Below are positions 9,595-34,711 of a DNA stretch of 53,403 nucleotides, piece after piece. Every line of letters starts with the position of its first letter. Position 1 is the first letter of the stretch. The stretch is from the NCBI GenBank assembly GCA_900617105.1, contig UYFQ01000026.1, positions 1-53,403 on the forward strand, read 5' to 3'. The DNA comes from Hydrurus foetidus (taxonomy: Eukaryota). The notes beneath the pieces were generated by a model. The model was given only the letters and a program-made list of their open reading frames with translations. It ran no database searches and had not been told where the DNA came from. The position numbers were made by a program, and so were the translations under genes.

Positions 9595-9911
9595 TGTTGG
9601 GGATTCTCTGAATCCGGATGCTTCGCACTCGTGGCGACCGGTGACCCAAGGCTCGTAAAATAGACTTGTATTGCGTAATTACTTGAGAATTAAACTTGTG
9701 CGCCGGCATCAATCAAGACGGCAACGAAGCTTTACATTTCAACGCAATTGCACATGGTCATCCGTGTTGAAGATAGATGAATGGGTGGCTACACTAGCCC
9801 ACACATCCAACGGTCCACGGTCCTCACCACTGGGGTGCCCACCGCTGACCGTCGGGATCCATGCATACGCTATACAACTACAGCAGTGTCTTTTCTCCGG
9901 ATACTCCAACA
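9595..9911 (-). repeat. Copia A 3' LTR
   Basis: Near-identical to 35295-35611; TG..CA ends; lies just downstream of the RNase H end. Confidence 0.95.
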
Positions 9912-10100: not shown

Positions 10101-13100
10101 CTATCTCCTGAACTGGGATCCTTGGAGCGGCTTGATCAGGACATTGGCGTACATATCCTCGCTGCGTAGGTACTCCATGCGCACTCCACCGGTGTCCACC
10201 CGCTCCTTGACCCAGAAGTAGCGGATCTGGATGTGGCGCGTGCGCTCCGCTCTGGACCTGCCACGCTCCACCAGTGCCATGCACGACTGGTTGTCCTGGT
10301 ATATGGTAACCGGCTCCATCTTGTACCCCTGTGCAATGAGAAATGAGCGGATGAAGATGCTTTGATTGGCTGAGTCTGACAACCCGACCAGCTCTGCCTC
10401 CGTACTCGACTTGGTCACGATGAGCTGCTTCGAGGAGCGACAGTGCACTGCTCCGACATCCCCGATCACTACGCAGCTGCCCATGTGGGACCGTCCATCG
10501 CTATGCACCCCGTATGACGCATCCACAAAAAGCCTCACTGCCACTCCGCTGGCACCCGGTCTGAGCACTACGCCGCTGTCCCGCGTCTTGTGGATATAGC
10601 GCACCAGACGCTGCAGCTTCTCCACATCATCTGCTGTGCATTTGTTGCCTCGAGTGGACAGGAAGGCTACCGCGACGAGGCACTCTGGCTTGGTGCGCTT
10701 CGCGAGGTAGAGGACCATGGCGACGACTTTGTGGAACCACACTCGCACTGGCTCGCTCACCGCTGTCGCGCCCTCTCTCGTCTCGAACAGTCCCTCTGTG
10801 GCAGGTGACTTGGCGGATCCTTTGACTCCTGATACCCTAACGATCTCATCACAGTATCCTGCTGTGGTGATCATCGCCTGTCCAGGTATATGCATGTCTA
10901 TGGCCATACCGAGGTAGTTAATAGCAGGTCCATGTATTAAGGTAATCGCATCATACCTTTTGCGCAGTCCGTCCACTAGGTGCACCACGGAACTCTTGCT
11001 ACGACTCGTTATCAGCAAGTCGTCGACATGAATGGCAACGCTACACTGGTGTCCGTCGGGGCCCGTCCTGTTGAATACGCATTTATCGCAAATATTCCGT
11101 GCGTACCCCAATCCCAGCATGGTGGCGTGCAGATTCTCGTACCACAGTCCGGAGCTCTCGACGCAGCCGTATAGGGCTTTCTTCAGGTGCACAGTCACCC
11201 CACCCCTCGCGTCTGTGAACTTGCCGTACTTCGGATCGATGTCTATGATCAGGTCGGTCATGGTGCGATCCAAGCGCATGTGCACCGGTGTCTCTAACGT
11301 CATGTCCGCATTCAGGTATGCGCCACTGATGTCGACTACCGCCACTCGGCGCTCCTCATGTGCAGCGATCGCTAGCAGGGTGAACACGGCGCTGGTCGAC
11401 ACGGTAGGTGACGACAGGTCTTCATAAAGGCTCTTGTCCTGCTGGTCGCCCCCTGCTACCAGCCTGGCCTTGAGCTTGATGAAGCTTCCGTCTGGGTTGT
11501 TCTTTTGCTTCAAAAACATGCAGGATCTGATTGTTGATGCCCTCTGCATCGCTGACAGCTTACCTCCCATCACCGGCACCCACACTCGCTTGTCGATCAT
11601 CTGCTTCAGCTCCGACACGATGACTTTCTTGGCTTCGTCACCTCGTGCGCGGAACGCCTCCTTGACGCTGATGTTCGCCGTATTGCTCTTGCTCAGCTCG
11701 TCCTTGTGGCGCTTCAGCACCTCTTCCACATCGTGCGTCGACGCCGCTGTGCTCTTTGTACTCGCTGCTGCGCTTCCGTCATCCGTTACGAATGCACCCT
11801 CGCTCGTGTGTGATGATCGAGTCACCATTCGCTCGGTGGGTGCAGGCACCCTGCGTTGCTCTCTTGCTGCCGGATGCACTGGTTGTGCCGTGTCCGCTGC
11901 CGCTGGTTCGCTGTCTGGTGCGGATGCGTCGTCGGGAATGTCACTCGGAAGTGCCGGTTCGTGAGGCGGTGTGGGTGGTGTAAGTACGTCTTGTCCGTGC
12001 ACCCCAATTGCCTCGATTTCCTCTGGTACTGCTGCCGTGTCTACTGCCGCTGGTACCCCCCCCTCCACATCGCAGGGAGGAATCTCGAGAATGTTATCGG
12101 CAGATGGTAGGTCGAGGAGGGTTGGTGGATCCTGCACCGCTCGTTTGTCGATCCTGTCATCCTGAGTGGGGGGGTTGGTAATGAAGGTTGGCAAGCTAGA
12201 TTTGTCGAGGCTGTTGGTGAACAGCAGTTCATCAAACACATGCAATTTCGTTTGTGTGATTATCTCCCCTTCGCAGACTGCCATGGCGTTCAGGGTCATG
12301 ATGACTGACTGAGGCATCGGCAGTATCTTGAACTGGTTCCGCGTGACGATCTTGCCAGTAGCGAGTGATAGCATCTTGAACGAGCCAGTCCTGTTATGAG
12401 ATGGTAGCATGACAACGCAATCTTCAGTACGCGACGACATTGTGTTGTCAGTGTTAGATACTGTACAGACGGCGTAATCCCCGAATGCTGCGCGGAAGTC
12501 CAGGTTCCCGTCAACCCGCCGTCCTGAGAAGAGTTCCCTCGGAGACAGACCCCCTGGTCTTGATCCTGACTGCTGGCAGTTGATACGTGATACGCAGAAT
12601 AGTGCAAGGTAGATTAGACATAGTTCATTCGGAGTGAATGGCAGTCTACCGTTGATGTGGGCGCGTATTCGCTCCTTCACCATCTGGATGCGTCGCTCGA
12701 TTCTCGCCACGTGACCTCCAGCTGCACTGACATCAACCTTGATTCCAAGTGCCATCAGCTCCACCCTCATTTTGCCGATAGCCTCTTCCCCGTCCGACAT
12801 GATGACATGTACCAGGAAATTCCTGGATTTCAGGACCGATATCATCTCATTCAGTGCAGGCTGTACCACTGCCGCTGCACGTAAGGTTTTTGCACTGTCA
12901 AGTCGAATGAGACTCACGGCGAGAGTCATGTCAAGTGGGGTTGATACAGCAATAAGTATTGCAGTGGTCTCCAAGTACATGATATCTACACTCAGCACTT
13001 GTTGCTGTTGAGCTGACGCAGGTGTCAGGGAAATGTCCGCGACGGGCGATGATTTCTTGTGCGTCTTCCCACGCATGCTGGCGAGACACTTCCCCCAGAT

Positions 13101-13535
13101 AGTATGGGCGTTCCTGAAATCGGCCTCCGACACTCTGAAGTTGTTCCCACCGCGAATCATCGCGATCGCCATCTCGACTGGCGGGTATCCCATACGCGCT
13201 ATCAGCTCCCTGACTGCTGCTGCTGACGCTATCTCACGTTTCGTGAACCTCATCAAATTCTCTCTGACGGTGGCGACTAGCGCTTGCTCGACGGTGTTGC
13301 GATGCGGCTCGAGTTCTGCCATGCCGCTCGCATCGCACACGTAGAATCGTCCAGTTGATCCTGGCAGATCCTGCCTACTGAAGCGGTATGTCGTCCTGCT
13401 GCCCGAAGCACCCCGACGCATGGTGGTACTGGATGTTGGCTCCACTGTCAACCATCGCTGCAAACGATAAGATGTTGGCAGTTGCTCCTCTGCTGTAATA
13501 GACAGGGCCGATCTCGCCGAAGTTACCCTCTTCAT
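10101..13535 (-). CDS. pol: Copia A pol (integrase, reverse transcriptase, RNase H)
   Basis: Integrase LSVDIM..MSDGE..IERRIQMVKER; RT KLKARLVAGG, VVDISGAYLNA, LKKALYG, IHVDDLL; RNase H FVDASYG..KSSTEAEL..YQDNQS..RTRHIQIRY. True frame joins gag-PR via a lesion near 13410. Confidence 0.93.
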   Translation of the reverse strand: MKRVTSARSALSITAEEQLPTSYRLQRWLTVEPTSSTTMRRGASGSRTTYRFSRQDLPGSTGRFYVCDASGMAELEPHRNTVEQALVATVRENLMRFTKREIASAAAVRELIARMGYPPVEMAIAMIRGGNNFRVSEADFRNAHTIWGKCLASMRGKTHKKSSPVADISLTPASAQQQQVLSVDIMYLETTAILIAVSTPLDMTLAVSLIRLDSAKTLRAAAVVQPALNEMISVLKSRNFLVHVIMSDGEEAIGKMRVELMALGIKVDVSAAGGHVARIERRIQMVKERIRAHINGRLPFTPNELCLIYLALFCVSRINCQQSGSRPGGLSPRELFSGRRVDGNLDFRAAFGDYAVCTVSNTDNTMSSRTEDCVVMLPSHNRTGSFKMLSLATGKIVTRNQFKILPMPQSVIMTLNAMAVCEGEIITQTKLHVFDELLFTNSLDKSSLPTFITNPPTQDDRIDKRAVQDPPTLLDLPSADNILEIPPCDVEGGVPAAVDTAAVPEEIEAIGVHGQDVLTPPTPPHEPALPSDIPDDASAPDSEPAAADTAQPVHPAAREQRRVPAPTERMVTRSSHTSEGAFVTDDGSAAASTKSTAASTHDVEEVLKRHKDELSKSNTANISVKEAFRARGDEAKKVIVSELKQMIDKRVWVPVMGGKLSAMQRASTIRSCMFLKQKNNPDGSFIKLKARLVAGGDQQDKSLYEDLSSPTVSTSAVFTLLAIAAHEERRVAVVDISGAYLNADMTLETPVHMRLDRTMTDLIIDIDPKYGKFTDARGGVTVHLKKALYGCVESSGLWYENLHATMLGLGYARNICDKCVFNRTGPDGHQCSVAIHVDDLLITSRSKSSVVHLVDGLRKRYDAITLIHGPAINYLGMAIDMHIPGQAMITTAGYCDEIVRVSGVKGSAKSPATEGLFETREGATAVSEPVRVWFHKVVAMVLYLAKRTKPECLVAVAFLSTRGNKCTADDVEKLQRLVRYIHKTRDSGVVLRPGASGVAVRLFVDASYGVHSDGRSHMGSCVVIGDVGAVHCRSSKQLIVTKSSTEAELVGLSDSANQSIFIRSFLIAQGYKMEPVTIYQDNQSCMALVERGRSRAERTRHIQIRYFWVKERVDTGGVRMEYLRSEDMYANVLIKPLQGSQFRR

Positions 13536-14268
13536 CTACTCTAACTCCCTTAGCTCCGAGCTGGACTCCGTCAAGGAGGATCGAATGCTGCGATTTCCTG
13601 ATGCCTGTCAGGAGGCTCGGATTGCAGAAGATGTTGACGGACGCCTGGTTGTCCAGCAACACATGGCTCCTCGTGAACAGTGCCACTTCGTTCGTCGTGA
13701 CGAACACCGCTTCGAAGCTCTCGTCATCCTCGTCGATCTCGCCTTCTGCGCCTGTGAGCATAGCGTGCTCCCCGACCTTGCGTTCATCGCAGTCTTTCGC
13801 GTAGTGGCCAGTCTTTCCACATACGAAACATGTCACCGTCGAGGCTTTCTTCTTTGCGACAGGAGTCTTGCCTTTCGCGCCTTTTCCTGCGACTTTTTCC
13901 TTTGTTCCAACCGGGGTGTCGGTCAGGAACGCGGAATGTTGCTCGGCGCCAAGGGGGACTCCTCCGCCGGCGTTCGTCCAAGATGACGCAACCCTGTATG
14001 CTCCGGCTAAGGTGGAAGGGTAGCTGTTTGGTATGTTTTGTACGGCGCTGTTACGCATATATGTCAACATACCGGTATACCTTTTCGGGTCTAGCTTACT
14101 GAGGAAGTCGATGGCTCTCATCGGTTCTTCCACCACAGCCATGCCTACACCCTTGTTGGCTAAAACCTGATTGTCGAATCTCGTTTTGAAATCCCCGATT
14201 ATCTCACGCTCACCCTGTGTGAGGTAGTTATACCTCAGTGTCTGTTCGTGGACGTTTACTGCTCTCAT
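13375..14268 (-). CDS. gag: Copia A gag C-terminal part with zinc knuckle and aspartic protease (copy 1)
   Basis: CFVCGKTGHYAKDC knuckle; protease VLLDNQASVNIF..ANILS. Continues in frame from 34712-34880 (HIYGEDD|SMRAVN) once gypsy B is removed. Confidence 0.9.
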   Translation of the reverse strand: MRAVNVHEQTLRYNYLTQGEREIIGDFKTRFDNQVLANKGVGMAVVEEPMRAIDFLSKLDPKRYTGMLTYMRNSAVQNIPNSYPSTLAGAYRVASSWTNAGGGVPLGAEQHSAFLTDTPVGTKEKVAGKGAKGKTPVAKKKASTVTCFVCGKTGHYAKDCDERKVGEHAMLTGAEGEIDEDDESFEAVFVTTNEVALFTRSHVLLDNQASVNIFCNPSLLTGIRKSQHSILLDGVQLGAKGVRVDEEGNFGEIGPVYYSRGATANILSFAAMVDSGANIQYHHASGCFGQQDDIPLQ

Positions 14269-14274
14269 GGAGTC

Positions 14275-14596
14275 TATGCTGGATCACGGCTTCGACGAAC
14301 TGGTCGAAGATGAAACGTTGATTGTCCAGTTGGGCAGATTGGCGCAACTGGAGATCCTGTCAGACGGATTGGACTGAACAAGGGATTTGGCTGACTCAAA
14401 GGAGTCGAAGTCGGTTTTGGTTTGTAGTAACGGTAGTTAATTAGATGTGAAAGGAGTGTGAGATTAGCTACGATGAAGTGTGTCTCGAGTTGAAGTTGTC
14501 GAACAGTCAGAAACCGAAAACTGGTCCGAAAAACTACGAGTGACGTGGATTGTGTATGTACATACGTGTGAGCAATGTGTGGTAACGAATGTAACA
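14275..14596 (-). repeat. Gypsy B 3' LTR (copy 1)
   Basis: Same sequence as 21612-21933 and 34386-34707; preceded by TSD AGTC (14271-14274). Confidence 0.93.
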
Positions 14597-14609
14597 CCAC
14601 CCTCTTCTC
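14597..14609 (-). other. Polypurine tract of gypsy B
   Basis: Minus strand GAGAAGAGGGTGG directly abuts the 3' LTR. Confidence 0.85.
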
Positions 14610-14843
14610 GGGTGAAATGTATTATAGGTGAAAACCGCAAAGCTGGAGGTACGAAATGTTTGTTAGGGTTGCTGTGACGTCATTACTTTTTTTTACTGGA
14701 TGAAAAAAACGGAAAAACAAAAAACTAACTGACAGTTGTGAGTGATAAATACATTGTTCGAATTCACATGAGATGCATAATTTAATAAGCAGCATACACT
14801 GCACACTGCGCAACATACTGCACAACACACTACACAACAGACC

Positions 14844-15482
14844 ATGAAAGACGAATTCAAGAAATCAAAGAATTTGTGCATGGCGGCGGCGATGGTTTTG
14901 CCGTTGTCAGCGCAACAACAGAGGTGGATGAGAGTAGGTGGTGATGCAGGCAACGCGTTCCAGAAGTCACTAGGGAAAGAGAATGATGATGGGCTATTAT
15001 ATGGTGCATCTGCTGAGGACGCTGTAACGTATTTGAAGTATGTTTGTGCGAGTAACAAGAAACGGGGAATTAAATTGAAATATGAGTTCCGGAGAGTTAC
15101 GGGGAGGCATGGGAAGATTCGTAGATGGACTGCACACTCAATTCCGAGTACAATTTTGGAGAAGAAAGGCATTTACGTGATATTTGGAAAATCGAAATGG
15201 GCGAATGCTATTCACGCGGCACTTATGAAGAGGATCAAGAAAGCGAGTTGCGTAGGTGAAGAGCTGGAGATATACAGCAAGGTGGCTCAGGGGATGAGCA
15301 GGAAATATCATGCAATGAGCATTCGTAATGATGAAAATGGTGTGAGACTGTTTGATAATGCATGCACTAACGGTAGCGTTGAGTTTAGTATTGAGAACTT
15401 GGCGGGTAAAATGATTGATTTGACTAACTGTTATTATTTTGATTTGTGTGAGAAGGTGAAGAAAACGAAGATAATTAAATAG
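14844..15482 (+). CDS. Antisense cargo ORF in gypsy B 3' region, 212 aa; candidate papain-fold Cys-His-Asp hydrolase (copy 1)
   Basis: Uninterrupted ORF with ACC-ATG start between the chromodomain stop (15651-15653) and the PPT; motifs NLC12MAAAM, GIYVIFG, YH156AMSI, LFD171N. Confidence 0.7.
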   Translation: MKDEFKKSKNLCMAAAMVLPLSAQQQRWMRVGGDAGNAFQKSLGKENDDGLLYGASAEDAVTYLKYVCASNKKRGIKLKYEFRRVTGRHGKIRRWTAHSIPSTILEKKGIYVIFGKSKWANAIHAALMKRIKKASCVGEELEIYSKVAQGMSRKYHAMSIRNDENGVRLFDNACTNGSVEFSIENLAGKMIDLTNCYYFDLCEKVKKTKIIK

Positions 15483-15650
15483 AGTTTTTATTAGGGGGCG
15501 AACCCACATTTTGAATGCCGTCCTCACATAATAGCTTCAACTATTGCTACAATGAGTGGGAAAAGGAATGTGGGCAAGCCTCAGACGTGTTCACAAAGTC
15601 GGAGAATTCCAGCTTGATTATGATGGAGCGATTTTTTGAAGGTAAGTTTT

Positions 15651-16217
15651 TTATTTGTATTGTGTTGGAATGATATTCGACATGTTGTTGTTGTTGAGGT
15701 AGTCGTGTACAACAGACACTCTCTTCATTTCAGCCCATGGTTCCCATGAATCATGTGCTGAGGAATAGTTGTGCCAACGGATTAGGAACTCGAGCGACGA
15801 TACTTTTTGGGATTGCCACGGTGAGTGATAACCAAATCGACGATATATTCATCATGGTCTATTAGTGCTGCTGTTTCTGCATCGGTTTTTGAACCAATGA
15901 ATGGCGTCACTCTACTTGAGTGAAGTATTGAGATGATGTTTGTAACGACATGTCGGCAGTTGATATCGTTTTTTGATTGTTTTATCACTTCGTATGGTCC
16001 GAGGAGTTTCGGAGAAAGCTTACTGGATCGTAGGGATTGCGGAGTCTCTAATGGATTCCATAGTATGTAATCTCCAGGTTGGTATGTGTTGTGCGAAGTA
16101 GGAGGCGTGTTTAATTGACGTTTACGGCGTAGCGATTCTTGATATAAACTAGTTATTGATCGTACGATTGCTAGGTTGCGATCAAGAGCTGTTACAAGAT
16201 CACAATACGTGTGACCT
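15651..16217 (-). CDS. Gypsy B integrase C-terminus with GPY/F motif and chromodomain (copy 1; one frameshift)
   Basis: KLSPKLLGPYEV; EYIVDLVITHRG then, in a shifted frame, LEFLIRWHNYSSAHDSWEPW..VHDYL..QYK-stop. Confidence 0.88.
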
Positions 16218-16486
16218 TGTGGTCTGACGGCGGGGCCTAGGACGGGAGGCGAAGTTGGAGAAGGCGGAGGACGGAAGGCGTGGGCAAACGAAGGCAAAGT
16301 CGAGAGTCGGTGGAATAGACTTGTGTTAGTATCTTACAGTTGAGTATATACAAGTGATGTGTACGCTAAGTGCATTCACGTCATATGTGGAACTAAGACC
16401 TAAAAGTGGAATCTGAGCGTAATATACCTATTGTACCTAGTTAACCTAGACACATTGTATTCCCTTAGGAATGCAATAAGGCTACA
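16218..16486 (-). repeat. Gypsy C 3' LTR (copy 1)
   Basis: TGTGG..CTACA, 269 bp; matches 23555-23823 and 29015-29283; PPT GGAAGAAGGGGTAG adjacent on the minus strand (16487-16500). Confidence 0.93.
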
Positions 16487-16685
16487 CTACCCCTTCTTCC
16501 TTTTTGAAGATCTTTGAAGATATTTGATTTGATATACAGAAAATATGAGATGAAACGAATGTCATTTATACTGATATAGATGAAACGAAGACCCGTAGGT
16601 TTTACTGACTAAACTCTCCAAAAAAGACCCGTAGGTAAAAAAAATAGGAGAGAATCCTCATGGATAAAGTTTCAAATATATTAAG

Positions 16686-17340
16686 TCATCGATGTTGCTT
16701 ATTGATTAATTTAGTCATGTTATTATGACGTAAATAATCATGAAGTTTATCAACATCACGAAGATTTGAATAAGGTTCCCAAGTGTTTTTGTCTGAAGGG
16801 TAATTTAACCATTTGACTAAAAACTCTATGTGGGTACGTTGGTGTTTGCCACGATGATCAAGAATGTCTTCAACAAAGTATTCCATGTGATCACGTCGTG
16901 CAACATCCAACGGATTTGTGATTGAAGGGTCAAATAGAAAAGGTTTCATTGCAGAAACATGAAACTCTGAAGTTTTCTGAGTGACTAAATCATAAAGTGT
17001 GTAACGCGAATTTTCGCCACTAACGACTTTTAATGGGCCTCTCCAATGCGTGTGAAGACGTGAAGGAGGGGATCCATCGCGATAGTGCACTAAGACATAA
17101 GAGTCTTTTGGATAATCTACATGCTGAAAAACTTGAGACTGACTTTGATGAAGCAAATCTGTGCGAAGAAGTTCTTTAGCAGAAGCTTTAAGAAGACTGT
17201 CTTGCGTTTTGAGTAGATTGCTCATACGCTTTGACAAAGGTTTGTCATCAGTAACATTTCGCTCAGCAGGAGGTAAAAAGATACCTCTATCGAGTTTTAG
17301 TACATTTCCGAAAAGAAGTTGAGAAGATGATATTTTTAAA
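16686..17340 (-). CDS. Gypsy C integrase C-terminus and chromodomain (copy 1, runs into garbled junction)
   Basis: HWRGPLKV..FHVSAMKPF..YFVEDILDHRG..EFLVKWLNY..NTWEPY. Confidence 0.88.
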
Positions 17341-18990
17341 CGATCACTGTGATTAAATTTAAAATTCGTTGCACAAATCCGTGACGTTTTATAATTTCTA
17401 GTGTGACATTATCATGTTAGCACGAAGAGTCTATTTCTTTATTCATGCGCGAACTGTGATATTTAGAGCCTTGGTCGACAATGACGTTTTAATAATAATC
17501 TTAATACGTTCTGAAGTGTGGCATACAGAACGGATGTATATCAAACTTTTTAGCCGAAGTAGCAAGAGATTTTGCTGTTGAAAGTGCTGTAAGATTCTGT
17601 ATGAAACAGTTCAACCATCTTGTGATAATATCGATTTGTTGTACGCCGTATGGGAACGGTCAATCTATGTAAGGCCCAGAGAATTTAGAAATAGCAATAT
17701 GAATGATGATTTAACATATTTGATTCTGACAACACGACAAGTGACTGCCACGGAGAGATTATTGCCAAATATCTTTTTCAAGGAGGAAAGTGCGCTCACC
17801 GAAATCCCCGATCAATTGTGCTACTTTACATGTGGACCTCAGGCATCGATGTGAAACTGTATGAGGAAGTCCATCAATAGAAGCTTGATCTCCTAGTCAG
17901 TTGGGCGTTCTCAGAAATTATCAGGCTGCATTTCCTTGTGTATTATTCATTTTAAATGAACCATATTCCAATAAGCTCACCACATCCGTGATCTCCTTTT
18001 GATTTGAACTTGACCATCATTGGACACAAAATAATATGATCTGCAGGCACAGAAGTTTGAGTTTCGAGAGAACGATGACAACTTTTTGTGCCACCCAACG
18101 ACTGAGCTTTGTTAAGATTCGCCTATCTCTTTCCGAAAAGTACCTCTAGTGGCAGTGTGCTTGGCGGATCACTTTGCACGTCCTGATTTTGAAAGATTTC
18201 ATCACATTCCTGCTCTGAGATCATCTATTGTCCATTATATTCATATCTCATGGTTAAACCTGAGGTAAGTTATAGAGCGTCCATGTCTTGAAGCTAATCG
18301 CCATCCATACCTCTTGAGTTGTCCTTCCACTGGTGGAATACGGAACAGTCTTGTTCGTCTCGTTATCAGCAGTGTCGGTAATTAGGCAACCTACACTTAT
18401 TCGCGTTTAAGGCAGCGTCACTGTTGAAACGACAAACATCGTGAATATTCCGATGTCGGACCCCAATCCCATGCATGGGAAGTATAGATATCATCAACCA
18501 CAGACGTGTCTCTAACGCAGGGTTTAGTCATTCTTCGGTGTCAGCACAAACAAGTCGCGTTGTGAACTTGCGTCTTCGGATCAGAAGTCTATGATCAGGT
18601 CGGTCATAGTGCGATCCAAGCGCATGTGCAACGGTGTCTCTAACGTCATGTCCGCATTCAGGTATCGCCACTGATGTAACTACCGCCATCGGCGCTCACT
18701 ATGTGCAGCGATCGTAGCAGGGTGAACACGGCGCTGGTCACAAGGTAAGTGAGACAGGTGTCATAAAGGCTCTTGTCCTGCTGGTCGCCCCTGTACCAGC
18801 CTGGTTGTGCTTGATGAAGCTTCCGTCTGGGTTGTTCTTTTGCTTCAAAAATATGCAAGATCTGATTGTTGATGCCCTCTGCATCGCTGACAGCTTAACT
18901 ACCATGACCGGCACCCGATACTCGCTTGTCGATCACTCTGCTTCAGCTCCGAGACGATGACTTTCTTGGCTTCGTCACCTCGTGACGTGG
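17341..18990. other. Garbled mosaic junction, probably unpolished or misassembled consensus
   Basis: Indel-riddled patches match 24660-25400, then both 10800-11100 and 3470-3770, then 11240-11650 with rising identity. Confidence 0.75.
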
Positions 18991-19378
18991 AATGCCTCCT
19001 TGACGCTGATGTTCGCCGTATTGCTCTTGCTCAGCTCGTCCTTGTGGCGCTTCAGCACCTCTTCCACATCGTGCGTCGACGCCGCTGTGCTCTTTGTACT
19101 CGCTGCTGCGCTTCCGTCATCCGTTACGAATGCACCCTCGCTCGTGTGTGATGATCGAGTCACCATTCGCTCGGTGGGTGCAGGCACCCTGCGTTGCTCT
19201 CTTGCTGCCGGATGCACTGGTTGTGCCGTGTCCGCTGCCGCTGGTTCGCTGTCTGGTGCGGATGCGTCGTCGGGAATGTCACTCGGAAGTGCCGGTTCGT
19301 GAGGCGGTGTGGGTGGTGTAAGTACGTCTTGTCCGTGCACCCCAATTGCCTCGATTTCCTCTGGTACTGCTGCCGTGT

Positions 19379-20872
19379 CTACTGCCGCTGGTACCCCCCC
19401 CTCCACATCGCAGGGAGGAATCTCGAGAATGTTATCGGCAGATGGTAGGTCGAGGAGGGTTGGTGGATCCTGCACCGATCGTTTGTCGATCCTGTCATCC
19501 TGAGTGGGGGGTTGGTAATGAAGGTTGGCAAGTTAGATTTGTCGAGGCTGTTGGTGAACAGCAGTTCATCAAACACATGCAATTTCGTTTGTGTGATTAT
19601 CTCCCCTTCGCAGACTGCCATGGCGTTCAGGGTCATGATGACTGACTGAGGCATCGGCAGTATCTTGAACTGGTTCCGCGTGACGATCTTGCCAGTAGCG
19701 AGTGATAGCATCTTGAACGAGCCAGTCCTGTTATGAGATGGTAGCATGACAACGCAATCTTCAGTACGCGACGACATTGTGTTGTCAGTGTTAGATACTG
19801 TACAGACGGCGTAATCCCCGAATGCTGCGCGGAAGTCCAGGTTCCCGTCAACCCGCCGTCCTGAGAAGAGTTCCCTCGGAGACAGACCCCCTGGTCTTGA
19901 TCCTGACTGCTGGCAGTTGATACGTGATACGCAGAATAGTGCAAGGTAGATTAGACATAGTTCATTCGGAGTGAATGGCAGTCTACCGTTGATGTGGGCG
20001 CGTATTCGCTCCTTCACCATCTGGATGCGTCGCTCGATTCTCGCCACGTGACCTCCAGCTGCACTGACATCAACCTTGATTCCAAGTGCCATCAGCTCCA
20101 CCCTCATTTTGCCGATAGCCTCTTCCCCGTCCGACATGATGACATGTACCAGGAAATTCCTGGATTTCAGGACCGATATCATCTCATTCAGTGCAGGCTG
20201 TACCACTGCCGCTGCACGTAAGGTTTTTGCACTGTCAAGTCGAATGAGACTCACGGCGAGAGTCATGTCAAGTGGGGTTGATACAGCAATAAGTATTGCA
20301 GTGGTCTCCAAGTACATGATATCTACACTCAGCACTTGTTGCTGTTGAGCTGACGCAGGTGTCAGGGAAATGTCCGCGACGGGCGATGATTTCTTGTGCG
20401 TCTTCCCACGCATGCTGGCGAGACACTTCCCCCAGATAGTATGGGCGTTCCTGAAATCGGCCTCCGACACTCTGAAGTTGTTCCCACCGCGAATCATCGC
20501 GATCGCCATCTCGACTGGCGGGTATCCCATACGCGCTATCAGCTCCCTGACTGCTGCTGCTGACGCTATCTCACGTTTCGTGAACCTCATCAAATTCTCT
20601 CTGACGGTGGCGACTAGCGCTTGCTCGACGGTGTTGCGATGCGGCTCGAGTTCTGCCATGCCGCTCGCATCGCACACGTAGAATCGTCCAGTTGATCCTG
20701 GCAGATCCTGCCTACTGAAGCGGTATGTCGTCCTGCTGCCCGAAGCACCCCGACGCATGGTGGTACTGGATGTTGGCTCCACTGTCAACCATCGCTGCAA
20801 ACGATAAGATGTTGGCAGTTGCTCCTCTGCTGTAATAGACAGGGCCGATCTCGCCGAAGTTACCCTCTTCAT
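19379..20872 (-). CDS. pol: Copia A integrase (duplicate copy, frameshifted at a G run ~19505)
   Basis: Near-identical to the N-terminal part of 10101-13535. Confidence 0.85.
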   Translation of the reverse strand: MKRVTSARSALSITAEEQLPTSYRLQRWLTVEPTSSTTMRRGASGSRTTYRFSRQDLPGSTGRFYVCDASGMAELEPHRNTVEQALVATVRENLMRFTKREIASAAAVRELIARMGYPPVEMAIAMIRGGNNFRVSEADFRNAHTIWGKCLASMRGKTHKKSSPVADISLTPASAQQQQVLSVDIMYLETTAILIAVSTPLDMTLAVSLIRLDSAKTLRAAAVVQPALNEMISVLKSRNFLVHVIMSDGEEAIGKMRVELMALGIKVDVSAAGGHVARIERRIQMVKERIRAHINGRLPFTPNELCLIYLALFCVSRINCQQSGSRPGGLSPRELFSGRRVDGNLDFRAAFGDYAVCTVSNTDNTMSSRTEDCVVMLPSHNRTGSFKMLSLATGKIVTRNQFKILPMPQSVIMTLNAMAVCEGEIITQTKLHVFDELLFTNSLDKSNLPTFITNPPLRMTGSTNDRCRIHQPSSTYHLPITFSRFLPAMWRGGYQRQ

Positions 20873-21605
20873 CTACTCTAACTCCCTTAGCTCCGAGCTG
20901 GACTCCGTCAAGGAGGATCGAATGCTGCGATTTCCTGATGCCTGTCAGGAGGCTCGGATTGCAGAAGATGTTGACGGACGCCTGGTTGTCCAGCAACACA
21001 TGGCTCCTCGTGAACAGTGCCACTTCGTTCGTCGTGACGAACACCGCTTCGAAGCTCTCGTCATCCTCGTCGATCTCGCCTTCTGCGCCTGTGAGCATAG
21101 CGTGCTCCCCGACCTTGCGTTCATCGCAGTCTTTCGCGTAGTGGCCAGTCTTTCCACATACGAAGCATGTCACCGTCGAGGCTTTCTTCTTTGCGACAGG
21201 AGTCTTGCCTTTCGCGCCTTTTCCTGCGACTTTTTCCTTTGTTCCAACCGGGGTGTCGGTCAGGAACGCGGAATGTTGCTCGGCGCCAAGGGGGACTCCT
21301 CCGCCGGCGTTCGTCCAAGATGACGCAACCCTGTATGCTCCGGCTAAGGTGGAAGGGTAGCTGTTTGGTATGTTTTGTACGGCGCTGTTACGCATATATG
21401 TCAACATACCGGTATACCTTTTCGGGTCTAGCTTACTGAGGAAGTCGATGGCTCTCATCGGTTCTTCCACCACAGCCATGCCTACACCCTTGTTGGCTAA
21501 AACCTGATTGTCGAATCTCGTTTTGAAATCCCCGATTATCTCACGCTCACCCTGTGTGAGGTAGTTATACCTCAGTGTCTGTTCGTGGACGTTTACTGCT
21601 CTCAT
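20712..21605 (-). CDS. gag: Copia A gag C-terminal part and protease (copy 2)
   Basis: Same protein as 13375-14268. Confidence 0.88.
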   Translation of the reverse strand: MRAVNVHEQTLRYNYLTQGEREIIGDFKTRFDNQVLANKGVGMAVVEEPMRAIDFLSKLDPKRYTGMLTYMRNSAVQNIPNSYPSTLAGAYRVASSWTNAGGGVPLGAEQHSAFLTDTPVGTKEKVAGKGAKGKTPVAKKKASTVTCFVCGKTGHYAKDCDERKVGEHAMLTGAEGEIDEDDESFEAVFVTTNEVALFTRSHVLLDNQASVNIFCNPSLLTGIRKSQHSILLDGVQLGAKGVRVDEEGNFGEIGPVYYSRGATANILSFAAMVDSGANIQYHHASGCFGQQDDIPLQ

Positions 21606-22180
21606 GGAGTCTATGCTGGATCACGGCTTCGACGAACTGGTCGAAGATGAAACGTTGATTGTCCAGTTGGGCAGATTGGCGCAACTGGAGATCCTGTCAG
21701 ACGGATTGGACTGAACAAGGGATTTGGCTGACTCAAAGGAGTCGAAGTCGGTTTTGGTTTGTAGTAACGGTAGTTAATTAGATGTGAAAGGAGTGTGAGA
21801 TTAGCTACGATGAAGTGTGTCTCGAGTTGAAGTTGTCGAACAGTCAGAAACCGAAAACTGGTCCGAAAAACTACGAGTGACGTGGATTGTGTATGTACAT
21901 ACGTGTGAGCAATGTGTGGTAACGAATGTAACACCACCCTCTTCTCGGGTGAAATGTATTATAGGTGAAAACCGCAAAGCTGGAGGTACGAAATGTTTGT
22001 TAGGGTTGCTGTGACGTCATTACTTTTTTTTACTGGATGAAAAAAACGGAAAAACAAAAAACTAACTGACAGTTGTGAGTGATAAATACATTGTTCGAAT
22101 TCACATGAGATGCATAATTTAATAAGCAGCATACACTGCACACTGCGCAACATACTGCACAACACACTACACAACAGACC

Positions 22181-22819
22181 ATGAAAGACGAATTCAAGAA
22201 ATCAAAGAATTTGTGCATGGCGGCGGCGATGGTTTTGCCGTTGTCAGCGCAACAACAGAGGTGGATGAGAGTAGGTGGTGATGCAGGCAACGCGTTCAAG
22301 AAGTCACTAGGGAAAGAGAAAGATGATGGGCTATTATATGGTGCATCTGCTGAGGACGCTGTAACGTATTTGAAGTATGTTTGTGCGAGTAACAAGAAAC
22401 GGGGAATTAAATTGAAATATGAGTTCCGGAGAGTTACGGGGAGGCATGGGAAGATTCGTAGATGGACTGCACACTCAATTCCGAGTACAATTTTGGAGAA
22501 GAAAGGCATTTACGTGATATTTGGAAAATCGAAATGGGCGAATGCTATTCACGCGGCACTTATGAAGAGGATCAAGAAAGCGAGTTGCGTAGGTGAAGAG
22601 CTGGAGATATACAGCAAGGTGGCTCAGGGGATGAGCAGGAAATATCATGCAATGAGCATTCGTAATGATGAAAATGGTGTGAGACTGTTTGATAATGCAT
22701 GCACTAACGGTAGCGTTGAGTTTAGTATTGAGAACTTGGCGGGTAAAATGATTGATTTGACTAACTGTTATTATTTTGATTTGTGTGAGAAGGTGAAGAA
22801 AACGAAGATAATTAAATAG
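22181..22819 (+). CDS. Antisense cargo ORF in gypsy B (copy 2), 212 aa
   Basis: Same as 14844-15482 except Q40K and N47K. Confidence 0.7.
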   Translation: MKDEFKKSKNLCMAAAMVLPLSAQQQRWMRVGGDAGNAFKKSLGKEKDDGLLYGASAEDAVTYLKYVCASNKKRGIKLKYEFRRVTGRHGKIRRWTAHSIPSTILEKKGIYVIFGKSKWANAIHAALMKRIKKASCVGEELEIYSKVAQGMSRKYHAMSIRNDENGVRLFDNACTNGSVEFSIENLAGKMIDLTNCYYFDLCEKVKKTKIIK

Positions 22820-22987
22820 AGTTTTTATTAGGGGGCGAACCCACATTTTGAATGCCGTCCTCACATAATAGCTTCAACTATTGCTACAATGAGTGGGAAA
22901 AGGAATGTGGGCAAGCCTCAGACGTGTTCACAAAGTCGGAGAATTTCAGCTTGATTATGATGGAGCGATTTTTTGAAGGTAAGTTTT

Positions 22988-23554
22988 TTATTTGTATTGT
23001 GTTGGAATGATATTCGACATGTTGTTGTTGTTGAGGTAGTCGTGTACAACAGACACTCTCTTCATTTCAGCCCATGGTTCCCATGAATCATGTGCTGAGG
23101 AATAGTTGTGCCAACGGATTAGGAACTCGAGCGACGATACTTTTTGGGATTGCCACGGTGAGTGATAACCAAATCGACGATATATTCATCATGGTCTATT
23201 AGTGCTGCTGTTTCTGCATCGGTTTTTGAACCAATGAATGGCGTCACTCTACTTGAGTGAAGTATTGAGATGATGTTTGTAACGACATGTCGGCAGTTGA
23301 TATCGTTTTTTGATTGTTTTATCACTTCGTATGGTCCGAGGAGTTTCGGAGAAAGCTTACTGGATCGTAGGGATTGCGGAGTCTCTAATGGATTCCATAG
23401 TATGTAATCTCCAGGTTGGTATGTGTTGTGCGAAGTAGGAGGCGTGTTTAATTGACGTTTACGGCGTAGCGATTCTTGATATAAACTAGTTATTGATCGT
23501 ACGATTGCTAGGTTGCGATCAAGAGCTGTTACAAGATCACAATACGTGTGACCT
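22988..23554 (-). CDS. Gypsy B integrase C-terminus and chromodomain (copy 2)
   Basis: Same as 15651-16217; continues from 29288 (PLLPG|HTYCD) after removing gypsy C. Confidence 0.88.
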
Positions 23555-24012
23555 TGTGGTCTGACGGCGGGGCCTAGGACGGGAGGCGAAGTTGGAGAAG
23601 GCGGAGGACGGAAGGCGTGGGCAAACGAAGGCAAAGTCGAGAGTCGGTGGAATAGACTTGTGTTAGTATCTTACAGTTGAGTATATACAAGTGATGTGTA
23701 CGCTAAGTGCATTCACGTCATATGTGGAACTAAGACCTAAAAGTGGAATCTGAGCGTAATATACCTATTGTACCTAGTTAACCTAGACACATTGTATTCC
23801 CTTAGGAATGCAATAAGGCTACACTACCCCTTCTTCCTTTTTTGAAGATCTTTGATTTGATATACAGAAAAAAAGAGATATGTAAAACATATATATGAGA
23901 TATAGATGAAACGATTATGTCAGACTTTTACTGACTAAACTCTCCAAAAAAGACCCGTAGGTAAAAAAAAATAGGAGAGAATCCTCATGGATAAAGTTTC
24001 AAATATATTAAG

Positions 24013-27000
24013 TCATCGATGTTGCTTATTGATTAATTTAGTCATGTTATTATGACGTAAATAATCATGAAGTTTATCAACATCACGAAGATTTGAATAA
24101 GGTTCCCAAGTGTTTTTGTCTGAAGGGTAATTTAACCATTTGACTAAAAACTCTATGTGGGTACGTTGGTGTTTGCCACGATGATCAAGAATGTCTTCAA
24201 CAAAGTATTCCATGTGATCACGTCGTGCAACATCCAACGGATTTGTGATTGAAGGGTCAAATAGAAAAGGTTTCATTGCAGAAACATGAAACTCTGAAGT
24301 TTTCTGAGTGACTAAATCATAAAGTGTGTAACGCGAATTTTCGCCACTAACGACTTTTAATGGGCCTCTCCAATGCGTGTGAAGACGTGAAGGAGGGATC
24401 CATCGCGATAGTGCACTAAGACATAAGAGTCTTTTGGATAATCTACATGCTGAAAAACTTGAGACTGACTTTGATGAAGCAAATCTGTGCGAAGAAGTTC
24501 TTTAGCAGAAGCTTTAAGAAGACTGTCTTGCGTTTTGAGTAGATTGCTCATACGCTTTGACAAAGGTTTGTCATCAGTAACATTTCGCTCAGCAGGAGGT
24601 AAAAAGATACCTCTATCGAGTTTTAGTACATTTCCGAAAAGAAGTTGAGAAGATGATATTTTTAAACGATCACTGTGATTAGAATTTAAAATTCGTTGCA
24701 CAAATGGAAGTGACGTTTTATAATCTTCTAGTGTGACATTATCGAATGTTAATGCACGAAGATGTCTATTAACTTCTTTATTCATGCGCTCAACAATAGC
24801 ATTTTCTTCTTTAGAGTATGCTAAAGTAAGACAATGTTGAGTGCCAATAAGAGTTAGAAACTCTCTAATAACTTCGGAAATGAAGTGTGGCCCATTATCA
24901 GAACGGAGTTGGAGAGGTGCGCCGAAACGACCGAAGTGTTGCAAGAGGCATTTAGCTGTTGAAAGTGCTGTAGCATCTTCTGTATGAAACAGTTCAACCC
25001 ATCTTGTGAACGTATCGATAATTACGAGTACGTACCCGCCGTCTGGAAACGGTCCTATGAAGTCTATGTTAAGGCATTCCATAGGTGTGTAAGTAGAAGT
25101 TGAGAAACCATGAGCATGTATTGGTATCTTTAACATACTCATTTTCTGACAACACGAACAGTGATCTATGAACCACCTGACGTGCTGACGCATATATTGC
25201 CATACTATCTTTTTGTCAATGAGACGCTTTAAAGTGCGCTCAAGGCCAAAATGCCCAACTTGTGAATTGTGTACTTTACTGATTGTATTGTACTGATCAC
25301 GTGTTAGAATTTTCAATAGTATTAGCAGACATGATTGCATCAGGAGTATATTCCTGAGGGAAATCAACCATGTTATTGCGACAGAGTCGAGACATCGAAT
25401 CAGCTATATCATTGTTAGCACCAGGTATATATTCAATTTTAAATGAATATTCGGATAAGGCCATAAACCACCGAACAATCATTGGATTTGAATTATCCTT
25501 GATGTATAACAAGTTACGATGATCTGTACGCAATGTGAACGTACGATCACGTAATAGCGATTTTAAATACGTGCACGAATAAAAGATAGCATATGCTTCT
25601 TTTTGTATAACAGCCCAACGAAGCTGAGCTTTGTTAAGTGATTTACTGACAAATGCTATGGGCGTTTCTTGACCGTCAACTAGCTGTAAAAATAGGCACC
25701 TACACCATAGTCCGATGCATCAGTGTGCAAGTAAATCGGATCGGTGTCACTTAAAAAGTGCATAGTCGTGCATTTTGAAATCTCGGATTTGATCAAATTG
25801 AATGCTCTGAGAGCTTCTATTGTCCAAGTTATTTTCTTATACTTATTATAGTTAAGAAGCAACTGATGTAACGGGTATACAACAGTAGAAGCGTTTCTAA
25901 CAAAGTCGTGAAAATAATTAACCAATCCTAAAAAACTTTTGAGTTGTTTAGATAGTACTGGTTTAGGAAAATCTAAGACAGTCCGTATTTTTTCTTGTGA
26001 CATTCTAAGTCCATCTGCAGATAGAACTTTGCCAACATAATCTATTTCGGCATAGCCTAGATAACACTTATTCGGTTTAAGGAATATTTTGTGTTTTCTA
26101 AATCGATCAAACACAAGACGAAGTCTAGAAATAAGTTCGTCAATGTCTTTACCGAAAACATTGCAATCATCTATGTACATTTCGCATATAGAGTATATCA
26201 GCCCTGCTAACACAACAGTCGTCATAATCTGTTGGAAATAGGAGGGAGCTTGTTTAGGCCCAAAGGGTAAACGAGTGAATTGATATACTCCGCAGAAAAG
26301 TATGAATGCAGTATAAGCACGTGCAGCAAGTGTAAGTGGTGCTTGATGGTAACCTTGAGTGAGGTCAAGTACAGCAAACACTTTTGCTTTATGTGCACCT
26401 ATTCTACGCAACATCTCACCGATGTGTGGAATAGGATGTGATTTATCTTCGGTACAATTGTTGAGATTCCGAAAATCAATACACATGCGCTTAGTTCCAT
26501 CAGATTTTGGAACTAGCAAAACTTGGCTATAATAAGCCGCGTTCGATTTTTCAACAATATTTTGTTTTTCAAGTTTTTTATTTGACTGAGAATGTCAGCT
26601 TGATCAACTGTTGATTTAGCCCATGGAGGTTGTCTATTTTAGGAACTCTCCATTGGTCGTCATTGACATGAAAGTCAAAGGGTGGAATATCAGCAGGAGT
26701 GGCCGAAAGTTCACTGCTAAATATATCCTTGAATTCGTGTACTAGTAACCGAAGTTTATTTTTCTGATCTTCATCACCTGCTAAGTTTATTAGCGAGAGT
26801 GGGTCAGTATCAGGAAATTCATCTATCCAAGGTGAAAACGAGTCCTTGATCGAGTCGTCGATTTCGTCCTCATCAGGGGGCACAGCCTCAAAAAGTCTTT
26901 CAGACTCTTGTATTAGTGAAGCTAGAATAACATGTGTTTGGGTTACTGCCGGTTTCACCTTTTGGGTTAAAGGATCGACCTTTGGGGAGCCATCAGAGGG

Positions 27001-27450
27001 TTGCAACTTCTCCTTAGGCTGACAGCCACACGTTATATCCACTTGTTCAGAAGATAAAACTTCCGCTAATGAGGTAGTGCTTGATGAAGCATTGGCAGAT
27101 ATTTGATCGGGGAAACGTGAAAATAAATTCAATTCGCGAATTGCTTTTCGTCCCACTATTAGATCAAATTTTGATTCGTTTAAAACATAAGCCGTGATTT
27201 GAAAAGTATAATAATTATTTAAATCAGGGCAAAAATAAGAAAGAGTTAAGTCTATAGTGTCAGAAATATCATAACAATGATTATCTAATCCACTACAAAC
27301 TTTACACAATTTCTTTGAAGAGTTAGAAACGAATTGTGTGAAATTATGATTAGTTATAATGCGGCGATGTATAAAGTTGCCAGCAAAAGAGCCGGTGTCC
27401 AGGAGAGTAAAGACTCTATTACTTTTTCCAGCATAACCTCCTGTGAGAGG
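24013..27450 (-). CDS. pol: Gypsy C pol (protease, RT, RNase H, integrase, chromodomain), broken by several frameshifts
   Basis: Protease VFTLLDTGSFAGNFI (~27370-27416); RT 25680-26519 (MCIDFRNLN, LDLTQGYHQ, MYIDD); RNase H HTDASDYG, RTDHRNL, IADSMSR; integrase 24357-25367 (H..GHFG..CSCC, IDFIG, RSDNG, ENAIVER); chromodomain 24013-24276. Confidence 0.93.
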
Positions 27451-28912
27451 GGAGATACGAAGAAAGGAATAAGTTCTGGATCATCGGAAAGAATAGATGA
27501 TGAATTTAGGTTGCATAGTTGCTCACCTTTGTGTTTCTTCGCAGCGTTTGTCGAGTCTGCTGTTGAAGTAGCAGGTTTTGACGAAGAGGAAGAAGAAGAG
27601 GAAGACGATGAAGAAGAGGTCGATGTCTTAGGTAAAGTTGGAATAAACTTAGCCTTTGAATCGACTTTCAACAACTGCTTGTGACCCTCAGAGTTGATAT
27701 AGGGTGAGTCTGTACTGTTATAGTACGGAGACGTAGTGTAGAAACACGTGGCGACGAAATGGCCAAGTCTCCCACAACCTGTGCACAGAGGTCTTTCGAA
27801 TTTGTCAGACTTGTCTGATTGCACTGATTGTTCGCTCTCTCGTGGACGTTTTTGATTTTGTCCTGAGAGGAACGAGGAGGGGCTTTGATTTGGCGAGAGT
27901 GATCACCATACAAAGGAGAGACATCAATGAACCGTAAGGCATCAATTGATTCTCGTAGCTTAGCAAGCTGCGCAAGCCATACGAATCGAAAGTCTTCGAT
28001 TGTAATGAGTCTTGGCGTTGTATTGTTAAGACTACGCTGTAACACTGCTCTCCAATTGATAGGTTCGACAGGCAACTTATCGATGAGAATTTTGGTTGCC
28101 TGAAGTTGGAGAGCGGGTGTTGCATCAGGGAATCCATCAACAATATCAGCTAAAAGCTGATCTGTCTTGTCTTCCACTGATTTATCCTTCAGGTCGAATT
28201 GAAGTGCGACCTGAGAGACAGTTTCAATGAAACTCAGCTTGTCAGTTCGATTGACAGCTGATGTAGGAACTGTGAGATTGAGTTCTCTACAGAACAATTG
28301 ATTCGACCAATGTTTCCAATTGTTACAGGAGTCGCGACGATCGGGATCAGTTGCAAACTTACGCTTGAGAAGCGTTGTAAACGATTGATGGTTGGAAACA
28401 TGGACTACGTCAACTGGTTTAAATGGAGTTCCATTTGAAAGGAGGACCTCCATTACCCGTAGTACTTCCTGACGAGAGGGCACGGCGCTCAACTTAGGAG
28501 CTCTCTCACCCGTCTGCACATATTGCTGGGGTGGTGCCATCGTCCTTGGAATAGGATTCTCAGCAATAGCTGGTGTCGCAGACGAATCTGGTATCGCAGC
28601 CGAAGCTGGTATCGCAGCCGAAGCTGGTGTCGCAGCCGAAGCTGGTTGCAATGACAAAGCAGATAACGCCGAAATGACAGGAATATCAATGACAGACATG
28701 ACCGCAGGCTCCGAATTCCGCTGAGGAATCGGTGCAGACAGGTCGCCGGCGGGGTCCTGAGCCGCAGGTGGCCCAGGAGACTCTGCGTCTCCACTACGAT
28801 TGTGATGGTCGTCATAGCGTTGTCGGAACGCGACGGCTACAGCACGAGGTTGCTGCTTTCGCCGAAGGGCGTTGATGGAGGATGTCTTTTTGTCTTGGCG
28901 GCGTAGAGCCAT
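27354..28912 (-). CDS. gag: Gypsy C gag (frameshifted) with CCHC knuckle and poly-Ser linker
   Basis: 414-aa ORF 27668-28912 begins ~100 bp after the 5' LTR; CTGCGRLGHFVATC in 27354-27824. Confidence 0.85.
28569..28646. repeat. 18-bp in-frame tandem repeat (~4 units) in gypsy C gag, encoding PASAA(T/I)
   Basis: GCTGGT(G/A)TCGCAGCCGAA units. Confidence 0.85.
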
Positions 28913-29014
28913 AACTTTGACGTGATGGTTTAAGTTGGAGGAGTCGAAGACAAAAAGTCGGAAAAGAGAAAAACTTTCTCGGAGGAAACTTCGGTGAAGA
29001 CCGAATATCGATAT

Positions 29015-29283
29015 TGTGGTCTGACGGCGGGGCCTAGGACGGGAGGCGAAGTTGGAGAAGGCGGAGGACGGAAGGCGTGGGCAAACGAAGGCAAAGTCGA
29101 GAGTCGGTGGAATAGACTTGTTTTAGTATCTTACAGTTGAGTATATACAAGTGATGTGTACGCTAAGTGCATTCACGTCATATGTGGAACTAAGACCTAA
29201 AAGTGGAATCTGAGCGTAATATACCTATTGTACCTAGTTAACCTAGACACATTGTATTCCCTTAGGAATGCAATAAGGCTACA
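29015..29283 (-). repeat. Gypsy C 5' LTR
   Basis: Matches 23555-23823; followed on + by TSD ACCT. Confidence 0.95.
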
Positions 29284-29287
29284 ACCT

Positions 29288-32200: not shown

Positions 32201-32427
32201 TTGCTTCCTTGTGCACCAGTGTCAAGGAGACCACGACTGAAGGGCATTAGCCCAGTGTCAGTCACAATGGTACCAGAGCGAATGAAAGGTTGACACAGTG
32301 TTTGTGATGTAGTCGATGTAGCAGACGCCAATTCGTTGAGCATTGCGTGCGTTAGGACTTTGTCAGGGTCAAAGACAGTCGGATGTGGGTAGTCGTTAGA
32401 GGAGGCGAGGTGATCTTCTACATGCAT
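29288..32427 (-). CDS. pol: Gypsy B pol (protease, RT, RNase H, integrase N-terminus and core), with frameshifts
   Basis: LLDTGAQGSNFIS; LCGDYRPIN, DLDMTNSFHQ, LPEGVGPASG, VIFDNFLI; QSFLGAANFF; KHIPGKNNTVADWLSR; HGGRSLHHG..CPIC; IGIDH..YSDPGSAF. Confidence 0.92.
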
Positions 32428-32454
32428 TTCGGCAAAGGAAGGCCTCGCAAAATC

Positions 32455-34175: not shown

Positions 34176-34385
34176 AGTTGAGGAAAGAGAAGAGATTTGT
34201 AGACTTTTTTTCTTCTTCTTTTTTGAGTGGCCTTGCGGGCTTATAAGATTGAGACTGAACTTACCTCAGAGATCTAAATTCCCGCTGAGCCAGGGCGATC
34301 ACTGCTTTCTGGCGGATAGGAAATGAATCAACTGAGGAGAGTCGATATTTCAAACGTTGTCTCGTGTAAACTAGAAATATATATT

Positions 34386-34707
34386 TATGCTGGATCACGG
34401 CTTCGACGAACTGGTCGAAGATGAAACGTTGATTGTCCAGTTGGGCAGATTGGCGCAACTGGAGATCCTGTCAGACGGATTGGACTGAACAAGGGATTTG
34501 GCTGACTCAAAGGAGTCGAAGTCGGTTTTGGTTTGTAGTAACGGTAGTTAATTAGATGTGAAAGGAGTGTGAGATTAGCTACGATGAAGTGTGTCTCGAG
34601 TTGAAGTTGTCGAACAGTCAGAAACCGAAAACTGGTCCGAAAAACTACGAGTGACGTGGATTGTGTATGTACATACGTGTGAGCAATGTGTGGTAACGAA
34701 TGTAACA
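34386..34707 (-). repeat. Gypsy B 5' LTR
   Basis: Same sequence as 21612-21933; element-sense ends TGTTAC..AGCATA. Confidence 0.93.
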
Positions 34708-34711
34708 AGTC

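Follow-up and report, generated by a model that had tools for sequence, protein, structure and literature searches.

The window analysed here, 53,403 nucleotides of Hydrurus foetidus contig UYFQ01000026.1, carries on its plus strand an open reading frame (ORF) of 212 amino acids (positions 14844-15482) that runs unbroken from ATG to TAG and encodes the motifs NLCMAAAM (C12), GIYVIFG, YHAMSI (H156) and RLFDN (D171), so that the intact opposite-strand ORF described with these motifs in an earlier note on this DNA is confirmed by the sequence. When the 1054-bp spacer that contains it was shuffled 500 times with dinucleotide composition kept, a single shuffle yielded an ORF of at least 212 amino acids. 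The stop codon of a chromodomain (15654-15848, minus strand; Pfam Chromo E 8e-7), which is frameshifted relative to the upstream integrase tail, is located 168 nt past the ORF stop, and the C-terminal SH3/GPY-F region of the same integrase spans 15785-16216 on the minus strand (SH3_Tf2-1 E 0.0016, below cut-off). On the other side, the ATG is approximately 235 nt from a purine tract (the polypurine tract or PPT; 14597-14609, minus strand) that directly adjoins a 322-bp 3' long terminal repeat (LTR; 14275-14596, minus strand) identical to the copies at 21612-21933 and 34386-34707. Because the ORF is bounded by the chromodomain stop and by the PPT and LTR, it lies within the outer of two nested gypsy elements and antisense to its gag-pol; these positions uphold the claim of a cargo gene inside the element, and they fit an antisense additional ORF lying in the interval from pol to the 3' LTR. 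The gap upstream of the ORF (14610-14843, plus strand) is a candidate internal promoter and 5' untranslated region, with a TATA-like site at 14620, a TGACGTCA palindrome at 14675 and an ACCATG start context as its putative signals. Two overlapping minus-strand ORFs (14693-15172 and 15138-15509) had no Pfam match and were rejected as shadows; synonymous changes in the plus-strand ORF hit their first codon positions. The predicted product is basic (pI 9.7, 39 Lys and Arg residues) and has a Lys-rich tail.

The surrounding sequence is a minus-strand triple nest, in which a copia element (LTRs at 9595-9911 and 35295-35611, minus strand) is interrupted by an outer gypsy whose integrase is in turn interrupted by an inner gypsy. 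The outer gypsy measures 7363 bp without the inner insertion and extends on the minus strand from its 5' LTR (34386-34707) through gag, protease, reverse transcriptase (RT), RNase H and integrase (29288-34175, in several frameshifted pieces) to a 3' LTR (second copy, 21612-21933), with the target-site duplication AGTC common to the latter and to 34708. The identical LTR pair, this duplication and the purine tract are all present, as is the order protease-RT-RNase H-integrase-chromodomain (Pfam RVT_1, Integrase_H2C2 and Chromo; protease and RNase H from motifs), and an aspartic protease motif, DTG, is encoded within 30409-32427. The inner element is also a chromodomain gypsy (23555-29283, minus strand; LTRs of 269 bp; target-site duplication ACCT) and has an intact chromodomain at 16686-17225, with no comparable ORF between its chromodomain and PPT. 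Thus, the host of the ORF is indeed a chromodomain gypsy as had been proposed, with the correction that two such elements are nested here, the ORF being part of the outer (LTRs 34386-34707 and 21612-21933) and not of the inner. Contigs of run X5 join 23554 to 29299, the empty site of the inner element, the integrase being uninterrupted in other copies, and join 21605 to 34713, the empty site of the outer element. Across the nest (9595-35611), LTR pairs are 99.4-100% identical, indicating that the insertions are very recent, yet many coding frameshifts are present, some of which are probably sequencing errors.

A second copy of the ORF (22181-22819, plus strand) differs from the first by 2 bases and runs on unbroken into the remainder of the outer gypsy. 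It belongs to a 6.7-kb duplicate (10772-17450 matching 18122-24789 at 96.8% identity with many indels), and both insertion junctions are common to the two copies; these copies are therefore counted once rather than as independent insertions, and the second was rejected as independent support. The earlier note was right that a copy exists at this site, but it is part of the duplicate and not a sister insertion. The duplicate is possibly an assembly artefact. Where its two parts join, positions 17360-18800 hold garbled, low-identity integrase and copia sequence, and this join is likely an assembly artefact.

Homologues of the ORF product, where named, are called 'hypothetical protein'. An indexed search (160 candidates) returned 25 proteins of 58-96% identity, a full HMMER search returned 72 representatives down to approximately 25% identity, none exceeding 284 amino acids, and a profile search returned 62 matches. 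In an alignment of 61 sequences, from which most short fragments were excluded, the most conserved columns are the putative catalytic residues along with structural Gly and Ala. Counting only rows with a residue at the position, all 59 have His156, 23 of 24 have Cys12, and 55 of 59 have Asp171, the other residues there being Asn (3 rows) and Cys (1 row); Asn172 (55 of 59) and Cys196 (55 of 58) are similarly retained. Of the 22 rows that span all three triad positions, 21 read C-H-D and 1 reads C-H-N, at pairwise identities down to 20%, and the conservation of C12, H156 and D171 that had been put forward for testing is thereby borne out. A tree of the 52 rows of at least 150 amino acids has long, deep branches. 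None of the 61 members had a protease-family Pfam match at E values up to 1, and a sequence search of the PDB returned no protease, only 4 unrelated rows (E 0.5-1.3). The homologue searches found no longer or named cellular homologue, and longer fused forms were absent among 7994 candidates, which is weak evidence. One candidate homologue locus (L001) was rejected, being a bacterial anti-sigma-like region matched by a single chance peptide.

It should be noted that 37 of the 61 aligned rows start past Cys12 and lack the Cys region. For some of these the start codon was called too late, the motif being present in cluster mates (P0001, P0125). A hidden Cys exon was examined in 2 of the 37 rows, the long members P0069 and P0049, picked by eye. 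In both, the extra N-terminus is compatible with a Cys motif in a shifted frame (scores of 41.5 and 37.9, each reached by 0 of 100 shuffles), and approximately 20 codons separate the Cys-motif part from the conserved body. Judged from these sequences, the two distant members appear to have a short intron after the Cys, which is the simplest reading. In P0123, a deleted member of another such clade, the Cys motif is in frame. Additionally, one clade (the P0047 cluster) carries an 80-residue Ala/Lys-rich low-complexity extension ahead of the catalytic Cys.

The AlphaFold model of the ORF product (pLDDT 90.1, pTM 0.86) comprises a helix at 12-18, a strand at 109-117, a helical hairpin at 122-147 and strands at 156-163 and 166-170, placing the Cys at the start of a helix, the His at the start of a strand and the Asp at the end of the next strand. 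The homologue P0030, 34% identical to the ORF product, was predicted to have the same topology (pLDDT 90.7). Foldseek returned no match at E 0.001 or better; its top PDB rows are mostly papain-like, with bacterial Josephins leading both lists, and a few papain-like rows also occur among viral models. In a VIA-align comparison with 48,161 chains, 3 reached Z of at least 8 and 57 reached Z of at least 5. Among the 50 rows listed, 46 are proteins that we take, by title or identity, to belong to the papain superfamily, and 22oc, 8brf, 8ssk and 8ssm were not placed there. The best row is VTD (8add; rmsd 4.5, 151 residues aligned) at a middling Z of 8.4, followed by C39 (5xe8; Z 8.1, rmsd 3.7, 130 aligned), staphopain (8oig; Z 7.8, rmsd 4.0, 145 aligned); further rows include Josephin-2 (Z 7.5), M48 (Z 7.3), UfSP2 (Z 7.0) and YopT/AvrPphB (C58; Z 5.6), with no OTU fold among the matches listed. 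In the Atlas, the query matched C39-like clusters and P0030 matched IpaJ- and C39-like clusters, with scores of 0.92-0.94. The register was counted gaplessly from the alignment start, for the Cys pairing only, in 9 entries whose catalytic Cys number came from titles or papers: C12 fell on the catalytic Cys in 5 of them (8z4n, 1glo, 1a6r, 9fn4, 9g7g; that is, PeiR C90, cathepsin S C25, Gal6 C73, PcJOS C162 and PaJOS C66) and missed it in 4 (5txk by 2; 9f5t, 8add and 8adb by more). The papain-like fold suggested earlier is therefore well supported as a prediction by AlphaFold and VIA-align together, and within it Cys12, His156 and Asp171 are the predicted catalytic triad.

The top VIA-align rows are tied (VTD 8.4, C39 8.1, staphopain 7.8, Josephin-2 7.5), and no named family can be assigned. 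With C39, staphopain, Josephin and YopT/AvrPphB the ORF product shares the common fold (Z 5.6-8.1), an N-terminal Cys on a helix, and a His with, 15 residues further on, an Asp on the neighbouring strand, whereas identity to them is only about 7-14% and no HMM match links them. Unlike these proteins, the ORF family has an extra helical hairpin (122-147) before the His strand, an Ala after the His and a conserved Asn after the Asp. For Peptidase C39 there is resemblance in fold only (Z 8.1, Atlas 0.92) and no Pfam match; for YopT/AvrPphB (C58) the Cys-His-Asp order is shared at Z 5.6, without a profile match; and an IpaJ-like assignment has an Atlas match for P0030 only, likewise without a Pfam match.

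Comparison among copies suggests that the ORF is under constraint. Of 21 listed differences in the ORF, taken from the 40 listed of 100 places and pooled over 4 runs, 14 are at third codon positions and 10 are synonymous versus 20% expected (p 0.004). None of the three outcomes that the earlier note had set against its own proposal appeared, neutral decay in sister copies being one of them; for the triad this is judged from the topology of the model. The copy in the window has private substitutions at residues 155, 158 and 202, and it may be ageing or decaying while the family is constrained. A diverged contig of run X4 (37 differences in approximately 310 nt) spans the ORF end into the chromodomain (15411-15720), and contigs of runs X4 and X5 extend over the ORF and its flanking features, with part of the ORF deleted in some copies. 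X4 and X5 copies share a 334-bp deletion (15389-15724 and 22726-23061) that removes the ORF end and part of the chromodomain. Family clusters hold many truncated members, as repeats do. Among the 195 cluster members listed, 33 homologue contigs are at least 6 kb long, and 27 of these measure 6.3-8.7 kb, none 8.7-10 kb and 6 more than that; 5 of the 6 longer ones encode truncated or shortened proteins. This pile-up, centred on 7-8.6 kb and including clades at approximately 27-42% identity, lies near the 7363 bp of the outer element, and a pile-up of contigs at element length is the pattern of collapsed repeats. These contig sizes suggest that distant relatives may also sit in gypsy elements. 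Across the readings weighed below taken together, the ORF product is very probably a working thiol enzyme that the element retains.

Three freshwater metatranscriptomes, each from a different study, yielded contigs that match portions of 14799-15534, the majority with 98-99% identity; portions of the inner element, and sequences related to but diverged from the outer element, are matched too. These contigs are unstranded and low in depth, were picked by means of this very stretch and may derive from DNA; they are read here as presence only. Contigs of runs X1-X3 cover the ORF and not the neighbouring chromodomain; the runs were selected by this stretch, so this gap is no evidence.

Antisense additional ORFs between pol and the 3' LTR have been described for maize Grande (gene23), rice RIRE2, Silene Retand and Botrytis Boty (PMC7264820, PMC11963269). 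These resemble the present ORF in place and orientation, and theirs are kept across copies. The proteins of these elements have no assigned enzyme activity (TRP28, SMC-like or unknown), whereas a catalytic triad is predicted here, and Retand is of a non-chromovirus lineage, unlike the chromodomain gypsy of the window. The function of antisense 3' ORFs in LTR elements was unknown according to a 2020 review, which also reports that gene23 of Grande is served by a separate upstream promoter and that its product is nuclear (PMC7264820). Cysteine proteases occur in DNA transposons, as described for VTD and OTU in Helitrons (PMC9741609) and OTU and Ulp1 in Ginger1 and Mutator (PMC2836005; see also PMC6431247). 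As here, these are mobile elements with a thiol protease that is dispensable for core transposition chemistry; they differ in that they are DNA transposons with the domain mostly inside the transposase ORF and drawn from ubiquitin/SUMO protease families, whereas the present case is a separate antisense gene of an LTR element, from a family without sequence match to theirs. An orchid Ty3/gypsy cargo, an AlkB-type 2-ODD (PMC9289625), is likewise an additional ORF that is retained through replication and whose active site is conserved, but it is an RNA demethylase in Ogre/Tat elements and not a protease. Related literature includes PMC6338049 and bioRxiv 10.1101/2024.07.24.604956 and 10.1101/2021.04.13.439636. 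No LTR element with a papain-like accessory gene was found in the literature covered, the main text of open-access papers. Josephin-like and Ulp1-like domains occur in some non-LTR elements. The ORF is real and conserved, and on this comparison what the chromodomain gypsy holds in its antisense accessory position is a new, unnamed family with a predicted protease fold.

The explanation that we prefer, with a confidence that falls somewhat short of an even chance, is that the ORF encodes an accessory papain-like cysteine protease whose likely substrate is one particular host protein, neither ubiquitin nor SUMO, and whose action would aid spread of the element. In this scheme, the predicted protease is the product of an additional, conserved gene that a chromodomain Ty3/gypsy bears on its reverse strand and that would be expressed from its own transcript, probably starting near the PPT and running toward pol, as in Grande gene23. 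Because the genomic RNA is the opposite strand, the gene, in some relatives with its putative intron, would be copied intact at each transposition. The small, basic protein, with no evident signal peptide, would act inside the cell, probably in the nucleus, and its target may be a host silencing or restriction factor that limits the element. Processing of Gag-Pol is an unlikely task for it, given that the element itself retains a motif of an aspartic protease. A more specific version, which we regard as less likely than not, is that an old and diverse lineage of chromodomain LTR elements in freshwater microbial eukaryotes carries a non-deubiquitinase papain-like counter-defence enzyme that destroys a silencing or restriction factor. 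The antisense placement would then have been kept so that the gene can have a separate promoter, and an intron too, while the genomic RNA is left undisturbed, and the product would be a retrotransposon counterpart of a retroviral accessory protein, but a catalytic one.

The same gene and fold could instead serve to remove ubiquitin or a ubiquitin-like tag, shielding element proteins from degradation or undoing silencing marks, in the manner of the gatekeeper-less ZUFSP and VTD or of UFM1/ATG8 proteases. Several observations point that way: VTD (Z 8.4), Josephin-2 (7.5), M48 (7.3) and UfSP2 (7.0) are among the top VIA-align rows, bacterial Josephins head both Foldseek lists, and most cysteine proteases reported to date from transposons belong to this class (VTD and OTU in Helitrons, OTU and Ulp1 in Ginger1 and Mutator). 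Directly after His156, however, 56 of the 59 rows have Ala, 2 have Gly and 1 has Val, and none has an aromatic residue, whereas USP, UCH, OTU, Josephin, MINDY and SUMO/NEDD8 proteases are reported to have an aromatic gatekeeper after the catalytic His (PMC7391069). The lack of this gatekeeper weakens the ubiquitin/SUMO-editing role that the earlier note had raised, which is lowered but still stands, given that the UFM1/ATG8 proteases and ZUFSP (PMC7391069) and VTD, a further deubiquitinase and here the top structural row (PMC9741609), are without it. The Asp-x-His motif of VTD, UFSP and ATG4 is also absent, the family having an Asp directly before the His and a separate conserved Asp 15 residues on, and neither the gatekeeper nor the sequence profile of Josephin (C86) or other Gly-Gly deubiquitinases was found. 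Ulp1/SENP (clan CE), in which the His precedes the Cys (PMC7391069), is excluded because Cys12 precedes His156. Moreover, the C39 and staphopain rows, which are not deubiquitinases, tie within 1 Z unit. On balance, removal of a ubiquitin-like tag seems unlikely, if still a serious contender.

Three further readings were weighed against cleavage of a specific host protein. The triad might perform other chemistry on a host protein, such as deamidation, acyl transfer or IpaJ-like removal of a lipidated N-terminus. Papain-fold enzymes often perform such chemistry, and IpaJ itself removes the lipidated N-terminus of a host protein. For P0030, the highest-ranking named Atlas clusters are annotated with Pfam IpaJ_protease, at a score of 0.94 and with 167 features in common, but 167 is below the 170 typical of same-family matches, the query itself returned no IpaJ, and the 61 members have no Pfam match, leaving this chemistry quite unlikely. 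A selfish, toxin-like factor that harms element-free cells or offspring, or an enzyme acting on the element's own particle proteins, is very unlikely: a small, stand-alone, long-conserved enzyme in a mobile element is what the former would look like, and a papain-like toxin/immunity pair (9l5u, Z 5.8) stands among the fold-search rows, but no second conserved ORF offers itself as antidote, the overlapping minus-strand ORFs being without Pfam match, and the retained DTG motif counts against self-processing. The least probable reading, to which we give hardly any weight, is that the ORF is a passenger, whether a captured host gene or a non-catalytic basic nucleic-acid-binding protein, or that the antisense RNA is what matters. 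The high pI (9.7) and 39 Lys and Arg residues would suit nucleic-acid binding, and antisense transcription may itself regulate elements (PMC7264820); against this, conservation is greatest at the putative catalytic residues and structural Gly and Ala, longer or named cellular homologues were not found, and the clusters are repeat-like with many truncated members.

If the preferred reading of a protease that cuts a specific host protein is true, antisense cargo genes of LTR elements gain a testable enzyme function by way of the predicted active site, and the repeated capture of cysteine proteases by mobile elements would extend from DNA transposons to LTR retrotransposons. The captured family would stand outside the named ubiquitin/SUMO protease groups, and knowing its substrate would give a lead on the way in which a little-studied eukaryote keeps transposons in check.

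Several features of the window lie apart from the ORF. In the outer gypsy, the first 30 nt past the 5' LTR (34356-34385, minus strand) contain no TGG-type primer-binding site and no 7-nt match to its own LTR, and the corresponding segment of the inner gypsy (28985-29014, minus strand) has no TGG-type site and no convincing self-priming match. At the end of the gag region of the outer gypsy (32455-33255, minus strand) stands a zinc finger of CCCH type (Pfam zf-CCCH_PAN3, below cut-off at E 1e-4) where a CCHC knuckle is usual, and the LTR of this gypsy appears, judging by the AGTC target duplication, to end in TG...TA rather than TG...CA. In run X5, the summed contig depth of the inner gypsy (23555-29283) is approximately 100 times that of the outer gypsy, a ratio that is not a copy number but suggests that the inner gypsy belongs to a far larger family. 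Outside the recognised elements, a 409-amino-acid ORF without a Pfam match (47181-48410, plus strand) is possibly a host gene.
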